Source: an uncultured Monoglobus sp. (GTDB lineage Bacteria; Bacillota; Clostridia; Monoglobales; Monoglobaceae). Taken from it: a stretch of 64,000 nt of DNA. Positions within the stretch are counted from its first letter, which is position 1. Each line of letters begins with the position of its first letter. The translations under genes were made by a program, and so were the position numbers. Location: NCBI GenBank assembly GCA_947585115.1, contig CANPWW010000002.1, positions 9,875-73,874 on the forward strand. The letters are read 5' to 3'. Of this stretch, positions 5,587 to 8,111 are shown piece after piece. Under the pieces are notes generated by a model. That model saw nothing but the letters and a program-made list of their open reading frames with translations, ran no database searches and was not told where the DNA came from.

Positions 5587-5784
5587 GTTCGCACCTCAAT
5601 GCTATAGTTTCTGAATATACATAAAGTATTTTAACAGGCATTAACATGAAATGCAATAGCTAAATTGTATATATTTTCACAAAATGAGCGTTGGATTTTT
5701 AACAATAAATATTTTTAGTTTAATTTGAGGTATACATAAAATAATAACCGGTTGCGCAATTTATATATGATTTACATAAATCTC

Positions 5785-5813
5785 TTGACAAAAGCGCAAT
5801 AATGATATATAAT
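5785..5813 (+). promoter_or_regulatory. Consensus sigma70/sigmaA promoter for candidate antisense RNA 1
   Basis: TTGACA (5785-5790), 17-nt spacer, TATAAT (5808-5813). Confidence 0.85.
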
Positions 5814-5819
5814 AATCAT

Positions 5820-5918
5820 AGAAAGAGAAACGGCAGAGCGTAAAAACGGTCAGCCGCTTCGGGAAGTATATAAAACAACTGCCTTTAGCTGCTAAACTTT
5901 AAAGGCGGTTGTGTTTTT
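5820..5918 (+). ncRNA. Candidate antisense/antitoxin sRNA 1 (~100 nt)
   Basis: Perfect promoter upstream, terminator hairpin plus T-run at the 3' end, no ORF; 27 nt at the 5' end are identical to the paralog at 44461-44487 (minus strand). Confidence 0.7.
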
Positions 5919-5919
5919 T
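5875..5919 (+). terminator. Intrinsic terminator of sRNA 1
   Basis: acaactgccttta...taaaggcggttgt hairpin followed by gtttttt. Confidence 0.75.
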
Positions 5920-6001
5920 ATTGCACAGATGGTGAAAATACTGTAAGTATCACAGCAATTACCATAAGAGCAAAAGCTATTTTGAAAAAAACTTTTTTCA
6001 T
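5918..6001 (-). CDS. 27-aa hydrophobic peptide MKKVFFKIAFALMVIAVILTVFSPSVQ (type I toxin-like)
   Basis: Manual translation; SD AAGGAGTG 7 nt upstream; single TM-like helix; same-length paralog at 44306-44389. Confidence 0.75.
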   Translation of the reverse strand: MKKVFFKIAFALMVIAVILTVFSPSVQ

Positions 6002-6177
6002 ATGCTATCACTCCTTTCTTTGTGTCTTAAACACGATGTTAAGTGTTTAGAAAGGAATGAAGCGACCAACCGTCTCTACGTTTCTATCTCTGCCTTTTAC
6101 GATTGCGCGTTTTATTCGCGCAAAGGTGTTTCTCCGCGCGAAACAGATCCGCACTTGCAGTTTTTGCTGCCACATAT

Positions 6178-6206
6178 ATAATAACATACTATGACAATTT
6201 TTTCAA
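6178..6206 (-). promoter_or_regulatory. Promoter of peptide mRNA 1
   Basis: TTGAAA-N17-TATTAT with TG extension; near-identical to 44111-44139. Confidence 0.7.
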
Positions 6207-6227
6207 GTAACAAATCGGTTACAGTTC

Positions 6228-6260
6228 AAAAGGCGCGCTGTATATATCGGCGCGCCTTTG
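6228..6260 (-). terminator. Terminator downstream of serpin
   Basis: aaaggcgcgc/gcgcgccttt inverted repeat with T-run on the minus strand. Confidence 0.65.
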
Positions 6261-6270
6261 ATTTAGAAGA

Positions 6271-8010
6271 TTACAGCTTACATATCCTGCCCATAAATAG
6301 GATCTCGCCGGATTTGCAGTCGCGTATTATGAATGTGAACGGGCGGTCAACGTTAAACTCTATCGGCTCGCTCGGATCAGGAGCCGCGGCTCCCGGAGCG
6401 GCCAAGACCGCCGTCGCCGCGGCGGCTTCGGAGCCTTCCTCATCAACGCTGATATATGTCTTGTGCAGCACTTTGTCGATATAAACGGAATACCCGTCGG
6501 GAACGCCCTCGATCATTTTTCCGAAATCCGCCCTGTTTTGATCAAACGCGGAGGCTATTCCCATGTCATTCAGATAATCCTTGAGCTCTTTTGAGGTCTC
6601 GACCTTGAATTTAGGCATTTTGAGCTTTACGCGGTTAAATTCGATCTTGTCAAAATATCGGTCATAATCAATATCTCCGCCGTCGTCAAGGCTTATGTAC
6701 ATTGAGGCGCCGCCACAGTACGGCAGCATTATCATGCTCAGTTTATCATCGCTGTAAACGCCGAAACTTTCGGTTTGACGCATAAAATCGACCGAGGACT
6801 CCGTGCCGTCAAAATTTTTGAAAATATCCTTCTTGGTAGAATCTTCGTTAAACTCGTCTACCCACGAGCCTTTAAAATACACCGCGTTCACCAGAGCCGC
6901 CAAAAAATCACCGTCGTCTGTTATCGTCGGGATCTTGCCGTTTGTCTTTTCGCTTGTCCACTCGTTGACGCGCCGCGCCGCGTCGCTGCCTCCGACGATC
7001 TCGCTCGTTCCGCTATAAAAATCGTTGATCGCTTTTTCAAACTCCGAGCCGAATTTCATTTTCGCGCCCGGAAAATAATCGCGGTTGAGCCAGATCGAAT
7101 TCGCGATGCTCAATTGAGCGGAGTCGATTTCGGAATAACGCTTTATCAGCTCCTTGACGCTCTTGTTATACTCGCCGAGATCATTTACTCCCAAAGCGGT
7201 GAGAATCTCCTTTTCGGTCTCGCCTTCCGCGCCGTTTGCGGCCATGGCCATGGCGATCTTTACGGACATCGGCGAAAACATATAATTTTCGCTCTTATCA
7301 AATCTCGAGTTCAGCTTATAGGCAAACGCGTTTTCGCTCTCGGACTCCGGCGTCGCCGTCGGCGCTCCGCTGCGCGAGATCAAGCTCTCCAAAAACGTGC
7401 CGCCGTCTTTTTTGCGCGTGTAAAGCAGGTTGCAGGCCATGACCGCGGCGTCTCCGCGCGTGATCTTGTCGCCGGGATCCGCCTTGACGCTCTCAGCCGC
7501 GGCGGTAAGCCGCTCATCGGGATCCGGCCTGAATTTGGCGGTTATTCCTATCCGTTCCGCCTCACTTATATAACCTTCGGGATAATTCAGCTGCGCAGCG
7601 GTTCCGGCGCTCTCGTACCAATAAAAGCGCGTGAGAGCGGTGACAAACTCGCCGTAGGTCACAAGCTCGGCGGGTCTGAACGTCCCGTCGGGATATCCGC
7701 TGACTATGCCTCGCTCGCATAACGCGCCCGCCGCGCCCTCGGCGTAGCTGCCCGCAAGATCGGAGAACACATTTCCGTCACCGTCGGGGTACGCGCCCAT
7801 GCGCGCGATAACCGCGGCTGTCTCGGCGCGGGTTATGCGCTCATCCTCTCTGAATGCGCCGTCGGGATCGCCGTTCATGACCGAGATGGATCTAAGCTCC
7901 GACACGGAAGCTCCGACTCTGTCACCGTCGTAGAGAGGCGCCGCAGCGGTGGGCAGCGCTGTCAGCGCGAGAGCAGCCGACGCGCACAGCGCCAATAATC
8001 TTTTTTTCAT
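6271..8010 (-). CDS. Secreted SLH-domain serpin
   Basis: Signal peptide MKKRLLALC (start 8010, AAGGAAAGG SD); SLH repeats (GDPDGAFREDERITRAE; GYPDGTFRP); serpin motifs FSPMS, NAVYFKGSW, EEGSEAAAAT hinge, VDRPFTF. Confidence 0.92.
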   Translation of the reverse strand: MKKRLLALCASAALALTALPTAAAPLYDGDRVGASVSELRSISVMNGDPDGAFREDERITRAETAAVIARMGAYPDGDGNVFSDLAGSYAEGAAGALCERGIVSGYPDGTFRPAELVTYGEFVTALTRFYWYESAGTAAQLNYPEGYISEAERIGITAKFRPDPDERLTAAAESVKADPGDKITRGDAAVMACNLLYTRKKDGGTFLESLISRSGAPTATPESESENAFAYKLNSRFDKSENYMFSPMSVKIAMAMAANGAEGETEKEILTALGVNDLGEYNKSVKELIKRYSEIDSAQLSIANSIWLNRDYFPGAKMKFGSEFEKAINDFYSGTSEIVGGSDAARRVNEWTSEKTNGKIPTITDDGDFLAALVNAVYFKGSWVDEFNEDSTKKDIFKNFDGTESSVDFMRQTESFGVYSDDKLSMIMLPYCGGASMYISLDDGGDIDYDRYFDKIEFNRVKLKMPKFKVETSKELKDYLNDMGIASAFDQNRADFGKMIEGVPDGYSVYIDKVLHKTYISVDEEGSEAAAATAVLAAPGAAAPDPSEPIEFNVDRPFTFIIRDCKSGEILFMGRICKL

Positions 8011-8111
8011 AACACTCACCTTTCCTTTGATCTGAAAATATATTAAAAACTTCACCTTACTTTATTAGACGACAAAAAGTAAAATAAAGTTCCCGTTTTT
8101 TGTAAAATAAT

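Follow-up and report, generated by a model that had tools for sequence, protein, structure and literature searches.

A candidate type I toxin-antitoxin-like module of Monoglobus with a covarying leader complementary to the predicted 3' tail of its own mRNA

A repeated unit with two convergent promoters

Monoglobus is an uncultured group of pectin-degrading gut bacteria, and the DNA considered here, hereafter the window, is a stretch of 64,000 nt from one of its members (contig CANPWW010000002.1 of assembly GCA_947585115.1, positions 9,875 to 73,874). Alignment of window positions 5770-6215(-) with 44095-44540(+) reveals a unit of ~440 bp that is made up, in this order, of a promoter (promoter P1), a leader of ~170 nt, an ORF of 27 codons, a hairpin, a near-invariant tail of ~40 nt and a convergent promoter (promoter P2). 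In copy 1, which is read from the minus strand, promoter P1 of the peptide mRNA (6178-6206) has the form TTGAAA-17-TATTAT with a TG extension, i.e. an extended -10 element, and matches at 10 of 12 positions; both of its hexamers are conserved across 45 modules, and the mRNA is predicted to start near 6171 (GGCAG). Directly upstream of this promoter, at 6221-6255, lies a GC-rich palindrome (AAAGGCGCGC-N13-GCGCGCCTTT) that resembles a terminator belonging to the upstream gene at 6271-8055(-), which has the same orientation.

The copy 1 leader begins with hairpins P1 (GCAG/CUGC, 6170-6157) and P2 (GUGCGG.../...CGCGC, 6154-6136), which together cover 6136-6170 and are defined by an RNAalifold consensus and by two-sided changes. 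They are followed by block L1 (GGAGAAAC, 6128-6135), single-stranded in the local fold, by hairpin P3 (UUGCGCG-AAUAAAA-CGCGCAA, 6103-6123), on which the original prediction was centred, and by blocks L2 (GGCAGAG, 6094-6088) and L3 (CGUAGAGACGGUUGGUCGCUUC, 6080-6059), the latter two jointly spanning 6059-6094. The remainder of the leader is a Shine-Dalgarno (SD) lock at 6011-6058, composed of an anti-SD (AUUCCUUUCU, 6058-6049, with its core UUCCUUUCU at 6057-6049), an inner hairpin (AAACAC/GUGUUU, 6048-6043/6034-6029; whole span 6048-6029) and the SD itself (AGAAAGGAG, 6019-6011). The 27-residue ORF (MKKVFFKIAFALMVIAVILTVFSPSVQ) occupies 5918-6001, with its AUG at 6001. Most modules carry a second in-frame AUG two to three codons upstream of the likely start (GAUGCNUAUG; 6003-6010(-) and 44297-44305(+) in the window), which is only 3 nt from the SD and is paired with GCUUC in the local fold.

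Beyond the ORF lies a hairpin (5875-5912) that is shared by both strands; it is a proper intrinsic terminator for a plus-strand sRNA, with U6AUU at 5914-5922 after the stem, but its U-tract is poor when read in the direction of the mRNA. The adjoining tail of the peptide mRNA strand (5824-5860(-)) comprises blocks T1 (GAAGCGGCUGACCGUUUUUACG, 5860-5839), T2 (CUCUGCC, 5838-5832) and T3 (GUUUCUCU, 5831-5824), which complement L3, L2 and L1, respectively. The same DNA belongs to the convergent sRNA unit (5785-5922(+)), in which promoter P2 (TTGACA-17-TATAAT, 5785-5813, 12 of 12 matches) precedes an sRNA of ~100 nt running from about 5821 to about 5920.

Copy 2 is arranged alike on the opposite strand. 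Its promoter P1 and leader fill 44111-44305(+), the promoter at 44111-44139 being again of the TTGAAA-17-TATTAT type with the TG extension and the start lying near 44146; within the leader follow L1 (44181-44188), P3 (UUGAUGUA-AAUAAAA-UAUGUCAA, 44192-44214), L2 (44222-44228), L3 (44236-44257), the anti-SD CUUCUUC (44254-44260) and the SD GAAGGAG (44289-44295). The GCUUC end of L3 thereby overlaps the anti-SD by 4 nt, whereas it abuts the anti-SD in copy 1. The ORF (44306-44389) encodes the 27-residue peptide MKHWALKAAVMLFVIVIIHIAFAPVVH, and the convergent sRNA unit (44388-44520(-)) consists of a promoter P2 (TTGACA-17-TATAAT, 12/12, 44520-44492) and an sRNA from about 44488 to about 44388, the same DNA containing, on the mRNA strand, T1 (44448-44470), T2 (44471-44477) and T3 (44478-44485).

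A covarying leader that hides the ribosome-binding site

It had been proposed from the two copies alone that their leader hairpins covary and that each leader sequesters its SD. Both hairpins and both SD/anti-SD pairings do pair as described, G-U wobbles included, and the proposal extends well beyond the window. Two alignments were used, one of 38 leaders with both SD-lock types found in the window, and one of 41 whole modules that also includes a diverged lineage (G001). The RNAalifold consensus recovers P1, P2, P3 and the anti-SD/SD helix, and among the 41 homologous modules two-sided changes occur at all 8 pairs of P3, at 3 of 4 pairs of P1, 5 of 6 of P2, 4 of 6 of the inner hairpin and 5 of 10 of the anti-SD/SD helices. 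Overall, 94.7% of cells are paired, a share that falls to about 39-47% once the partners are slid, and the observed pairing values were reached by none of 500 shuffles. The terminated mRNAs, for their part, fold with z scores of -5.3 (copy 1) and -3.75 (copy 2) relative to dinucleotide shuffles.

The masking of the SD that is typical of type I toxin mRNAs is found here as well, in that the anti-SD/SD helix covaries and the SD core has a probability of being unpaired of 0.018, compared with 0.365 when the upstream leader is shuffled; the value was lower in 36 of the 38 leaders, and the SD is paired in every predicted state. Covariation and the low unpaired probability of the SD core together make this structural part of the earlier finding solid, and confirm, by comparative analysis and folding, that the leaders are real, covarying RNA structures predicted to hide the ribosome-binding site of a 27-residue peptide gene. 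No known Rfam family explains the motif: the whole window gave no match at gathering cut-offs, searches of 5700-6300 at E <= 10 returned only chance-level matches (14-18 bits against cut-offs of 35-100), and neither the antitoxin RNA families (RatA, SR4-type, Sok, IstR, Sib and others) nor the cis-regulatory families of Rfam include these RNAs.

Two details of the original prediction hold in part. The block GCAAGUGCGGA, taken there as conserved, is simply the 3' arm of hairpin P1 joined to the 5' arm of P2, and both arms vary and covary in other copies, where their counterparts read, for example, GUCCGAG or GUGCAGU. The identity of the AAUAAAA loop extends to the main family, in which it is invariant, but the more distant copies L103 and L126 have GCUAAAG instead. 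As a separate observation, the P3 loop (6110-6116(-), 44200-44206(+)) comes close to the surroundings of the stop codon, CAAUAAAA in copy 1 and CACUAAAA in copy 2 (the regions compared being 5921-5914(-) and 44385-44392(+)). It is also the exact complement of UUUUAUU in the 3' U-tail of the copy 1 sRNA; a contact between loop and sRNA 3' tail may occur.

A third leader type, 'type C', occurs in other Monoglobus MAGs (L052-L058; e.g. L052:143-407). It retains P1-P3, L1, L2 and half of L3. Next comes an insertion of ~100 nt in which five UAG triplets recur every 7 nt (AUAGCGAUUAGGGAUUAGUGAAUAGCGAAUAGGG); the leader also contains a palindrome (CCCGCAAAG...CUUUGYGGG) that is found again in L017, L072 and L074, and, before the SD, a hairpin resembling a terminator (AAAAAAUCGCCUGCGAUUUUUUU). 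The spacing of the UAG repeats recalls the sites of HutP, yet a HutP gene is absent in 7 genomes, and HutP was rejected as their reader.

Conserved leader blocks complement the predicted mRNA tail

What, then, are the unpaired conserved blocks of the leader for? The blocks that persist throughout the family, L1 (GGAGAAAC), L2 (GGCAGAG) and L3 (CGUAAGGACGGUUGGYCGCUUC), are the reverse complement of the stretch that lies past the shared hairpin, the family pattern of which is GAAGCGGC(C)NRACCGUUUUUACG for T1, CUCUGCC for T2 and GUUUCUCU for T3. Across 37 leader:tail positions in 38 modules, 1215 cells are Watson-Crick pairs, 168 are G-U, 13 are A-C and 7 are of other kinds, and in 37 of the 38 the mRNA-strand duplex is more stable than its opposite-strand counterpart. 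In the 41-module alignment L1:T3 is paired without exception (100%), with compensatory changes at 4 of its 8 pairs. Compensation is seen at a single pair of L2:T2 and at 2 pairs of L3:T1, which is 98.6% paired and has a further 12 pairs with one-sided changes. Long-distance 5'-3' pairing of the kind looked for in type I toxin mRNAs is hence represented by a helix of 37 positions that is 94-100% paired and has 7 pairs with two-sided changes, its 3' strand belonging to a predicted transcript tail. Matched replacements come from the diverged lineage G001, where L1 GGGGAGU faces T3 ACUCCCC and L2 GGCGGA faces T2 UCCGCC; compensations confined to single modules are seen in L043 (C-G to U-A), L028, L077 and L103. 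The compensatory changes in L1/T3 and L2/T2 stem mainly from that one diverged lineage and so represent few independent events, and in the seven type C modules the 3' half of L3 is missing and the tail is kept.

A particular ambiguity is built into this arrangement. The tail DNA also serves as template for the 5' domain of the sRNA, which makes the sRNA look like the leader without P3 and not like its complement; the statement that the leader pairs with the tail is for the same reason formally equal to the statement that the leader resembles the sRNA, a resemblance that gene conversion or a shared partner could also produce. It is the complementarity in combination with the compensatory changes and the preference for G·U over A·C on the mRNA strand that leads us to read the blocks as the leader side of a 5'-3' fold-back. 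Pair counts, strand bias and compensatory changes are evidence for selection of the complementarity at the RNA level on the mRNA strand, and the conserved blocks have the look of sequences that pair with the 3' tail of their own mRNA and not of a ligand- or protein-binding site.

The same inverted repeat might, in principle, serve at the level of DNA, either as the terminal inverted repeats of a miniature mobile element or as the site of a dimeric regulator. The unit is indeed multi-copy and dispersed, and it has an interrupted inverted repeat of 37 bp. The repeat is internal, however, with both conserved promoters lying outside it and yet forming part of the unit; the P3 hairpin and a 7-nt bulge interrupt one of its arms, a strand asymmetry of G-U versus A-C has no meaning for DNA, and viral contigs yielded no copy of the unit. 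We consider a role in DNA most improbable.

The original prediction offered a protein- or ligand-binding site as the purpose of the conserved sequence, and of this suggestion the part that stands is the covarying RNA motif itself. An aptamer or protein site resembling a riboswitch would use GGAGAAACA, UAAAAGGCAGAG, ACGUAAGGACGG and the AAUAAAA loop as a pocket controlling the SD-sequestering helix, and the leader shares with riboswitches and cis-regulatory leaders in Rfam the succession of a conserved, structured 5' domain and an SD-sequestering helix. It is in keeping with such a role that one conserved 5' domain precedes three downstream arrangements (SD locks A and B, and a terminator-like hairpin in other genomes), and that tail pairing does not explain why neither the P3 loop nor the UAAAA junction varies within the main family. 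Every other conserved block, however, has a covarying partner in the tail, the leader has no Rfam match at E <= 10 or at gathering cut-offs, distant copies carry another loop, and the family is confined to one small, genus-level lineage, in which the regulated gene is a multi-copy, 27-residue peptide gene with an antisense RNA of its own. [quoted passage not shown]

Probable read-through of the shared hairpin and a predicted convergent sRNA

The fold-back requires that the peptide mRNA extends beyond the shared hairpin. At least five T residues follow the stem in all 41 modules in the sRNA direction as opposed to 12 of 41 in the mRNA direction, and the mean number of T residues in the 8 nt after the stem is 6.3 versus 3.7. 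Because the U-tract is weak in its direction, the peptide mRNA probably runs through the hairpin into the tail, and it is plausible from the sequence that the tail's own hairpin followed by UCUUUCUAU represents the real 3' end. In folding predictions, the read-through RNAs of the two copies reach -129.6 and -127.3 kcal/mol (z = -9.6 and -8.4) and adopt the leader:tail closure; the predicted structure is composed of L1:T3, the P3 branch, L2:T2, a 7-nt bulge and L3:T1, which enclose the SD lock, the ORF and the hairpin.

The predicted sRNA consists of a 5' hairpin domain, which looks like a shortened copy of the leader, a linker, the shared hairpin and U6AUU; 54 homologues could be aligned, and the unit is conserved in as many loci. 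At the level of sequence prediction, the consensus promoter followed by a unit of ~100 nt that ends in a hairpin and U-tract agrees with the antisense gene of a type I system. The sRNA does not overlap the ORF past the stop codon, and RNAduplex found only loose, non-conserved pairings between its 5' domain and either the leader or the SD. Since leader and sRNA are alike and not complementary, no direct duplex between the two is expected. Two public RNA runs contained only short contigs of related copies, and the sRNA appeared in neither. The sole hint of transcription found is a 238-nt contig at a depth of 123 in run X10, which matches a leader of the L016 type. L016 itself (G031:C19, at a contig end in a sister genus) keeps leader and ORF, but its similarity to the other modules ends directly behind the 5' arm of the shared hairpin, and it has no tail or sRNA domain.

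Alternatively, the mRNA could end at the shared hairpin and never possess a tail. Leader and sRNA would then be alike through inverted duplication or because a single trans-acting factor (an RNase or chaperone, for instance) recognises the same hairpin in both, and the sRNA would act only via the ~40-nt overlap of the terminators. This explanation gains from the ability of the sRNA 5' domain and of L1-L3 to fold locally in the same manner (GAAAC...GGC...CGU-loop-ACG...GYC-GCUUC); L2 and L3 can form the local hairpins P4 (GGC/GYC) and P5 (CGU-loop-ACG) with L1 closing on GCUUC, and P5 carries a compensatory change of its own, U-A to C-G, that weakens the leader:tail duplex at that point. It gains, too, from orphan sRNAs that retain the domain with no cis leader. 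Yet the differences between leader and sRNA keep G-U and avoid A-C (168 versus 13 cells, with the mRNA strand better in 37 of 38), a lineage-wide change of four positions in L1 is mirrored exactly in T3, and the U-tract of the hairpin is poor in the mRNA direction in every module. We consider a tail-less mRNA unlikely. The local P4/P5 fold and the leader:tail fold may both be used, and the mRNA may pass through local folds before it closes.

The peptide, its copies and their distribution

The peptide has a Lys-rich, basic N-terminus and a single hydrophobic helix, and its ORF is conserved in about 50 modules. Neither of the two peptides belongs to a family in Pfam or NCBIfam, where the only match, to NprX at E = 3.8, is noise, and the Pfam Fst family did not match them at E <= 10. 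The genome under study contains at least four full units and one orphan locus with the sRNA only, and congeners have up to 11. With a covariance model of the sRNA, run on 121 genomes of the family, it was detected in 10 of the genus's 17 species and, outside the genus, in 2 species that belong to a single sister genus. When 185,579 species representatives were scanned for the exact pattern, the sRNA core occurred only in MAGs from rabbit gut, which are labelled as uncultured Monoglobus, Clostridia or Oscillospiraceae. The core pattern was not found in viral or JGI metagenome contigs, and a phage or wider environmental origin was rejected for this reason.

The genes on either side of the modules are unrelated to one another, and of the 19 modules with flanks, 13 face a convergent neighbour downstream. 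Unrelated and mostly convergent flanks imply that the module is not the leader of neighbouring CAZyme genes, and a cis-acting leader of a co-oriented downstream CAZyme gene was thereby ruled out. Orphan loci keep the promoter, sRNA and terminator, either alongside ORF remnants or with none, and their 5' domain is nearly invariant. Such loci, with the ORF decayed, truncated or absent, are G000:C29:23091-23262 (L005), L059-L061, L063, L064 and L130, the last of which is formed by two truncated units in tandem. At a further locus (L092, G018:C5) an unrelated small ORF (MDLNIIFILLVLIAILEIIKNIKK), hydrophobic, with a Lys-rich end and with an SD and terminator of its own, lies ~200 nt from an orphan sRNA; judged by its sequence, it may be a second, different type I-like toxin.

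The combination of a hydrophobic ORF, an antisense gene convergent at its 3' side, diverged copies and orphan antisense genes is what gives the module its resemblance to Gram-positive type I toxin-antitoxin systems. Could the peptide be harmless all the same, for instance a small membrane protein or a signalling peptide tuned by an antisense RNA and a structured leader? It matches no known toxin family, and, given how tightly the SD is locked, expression may depend on conditions and not be poised, both of which would suit such a role. A peptide of this kind would not account well for 4-11 diverged copies per genome, for antisense genes left beside decayed ORFs, for a convergent, 3'-overlapping sRNA with a promoter stronger than that of the mRNA (12/12 versus 10/12) or for the placement of the modules between unrelated genes, and several hallmarks of type I systems are present together (PMC8594479). 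A function outside toxin-antitoxin biology thus appears to us quite unlikely.

Proposed mechanism

We favour, as the reading that is somewhat better than an even bet, that the leader is the 5' UTR of a toxin-like mRNA in a previously undescribed type I toxin-antitoxin-like module, and that the tail of this mRNA folds back on the leader. The peptide mRNA would read through the shared hairpin, making its last ~100 nt fully antisense to the sRNA, and the tail would fold back on the leader to form a three-way junction (L1:T3 / P3 / L2:T2, then L3:T1). The fold-back would close the mRNA into a stable, poorly translated form, as is the case with the hok and aapA mRNAs. On this reading the conserved blocks would be an internal mimic of the antitoxin and not an aptamer.

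The sRNA, as the perfect complement of tail and hairpin, could then out-compete the leader for the tail, and the resulting sRNA:mRNA duplex of ~100 bp would be a likely substrate of RNase III. Binding of the sRNA would also free the GCUUC end of L3, and the freed GCUUC would lengthen the anti-SD helix and tighten the translational lock, by about 4 kcal/mol as predicted by the model. In thermodynamic terms, opening the region from SD to AUG costs 9.8 kcal/mol with the tail free versus 13.8 kcal/mol with the 3' 100 nt masked, and the cost is higher upon masking in 40 of 41 modules. In its most specific form, which we put forward tentatively and do not ourselves rate as the probable outcome, the proposal holds that leader and sRNA, which have a sequence of ~40 nt in common, are rivals for one partner, the 3' tail of the mRNA, in a three-partner switch of leader, tail and sRNA that is not known from any type I family. 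By releasing the leader, antisense binding at the extreme 3' end would in this manner act on the ribosome-binding site, some 250 nt further upstream.

Comparison with known systems

An antisense RNA that partly overlaps at the 3' side is the organisation of Gram-positive type I families (PMC8594479), among them bsrG/SR4, txpA/RatA, bsrE/SR5 and yonT/SR6 of Bacillus subtilis. Like these, the Monoglobus module combines the mRNA of a small hydrophobic peptide with a convergent sRNA gene that overlaps its 3' end. To these B. subtilis systems it has no sequence, Rfam or Pfam relationship, and its link between 3' end and SD would differ from theirs in being a leader:tail duplex of ~37 bp contested by the sRNA. 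For bsrG/SR4, Jahn and Brantl reportedly showed in 2013 that the antisense RNA, on binding the 3' end of the mRNA, both speeds its decay and alters the fold around the SD, which becomes more occluded. The modelled effect on the cost of opening the SD resembles this dual action of SR4 on bsrG, here via what would be an explicit leader mimic of the antitoxin.

In hok/sok, with its fbi-tac pairing, and in aapA/IsoA of Helicobacter pylori, the full-length toxin mRNA is closed 5'-3' and translationally inert, with an anti-SD masking the SD; their antisense RNAs act on the 5' or translation-initiation region, and the mRNAs become active once trimmed at the 3' end. The Monoglobus module would have the long-distance 5'-3' closure and the masking of the SD in common with these systems, but its antisense RNA would target the 3' partner of the fold-back itself, and the hosts of hok/sok and aapA/IsoA are Gram-negative and their peptides unrelated. 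Both systems are treated in PMC6733600 and PMC9841398. The par locus of Enterococcus faecalis pAD1 (Fst, RNA I/RNA II) is similar in its convergent RNAs with a common terminator hairpin, in a 5' structure (of RNA I) that sequesters the ribosome-binding site and in repeat blocks near both 5' ends. In par, though, the repeats are direct repeats in the DNA, and the 5' regions are complementary and pair together, whereas the repeats of the Monoglobus module are inverted, which makes its 5' regions similar to one another and each of them complementary to the 3' tail of the mRNA. A locus of the par/Fst type was accordingly rejected, the repeats being inverted and not direct and the Fst family giving no match. 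What the comparisons, in so far as they draw on sequence, point to is a type I toxin-antitoxin-like module with a 5'-3' fold-back whose 3' partner would double as the antisense target.

The module may thus be regarded as an undescribed, lineage-restricted family of toxin/antisense-RNA-like modules in Monoglobus. Its about 50 diverged copies with compensatory changes, in which the tail can pair either with the leader in cis or with the sRNA in trans, make it an unusually clean comparative case. If the proposed reading is true, antisense binding at the 3' end of an mRNA would control translation initiation at a distance, and conserved blocks in the leaders of small ORFs that look like parts of an aptamer can be long-range pairing partners.
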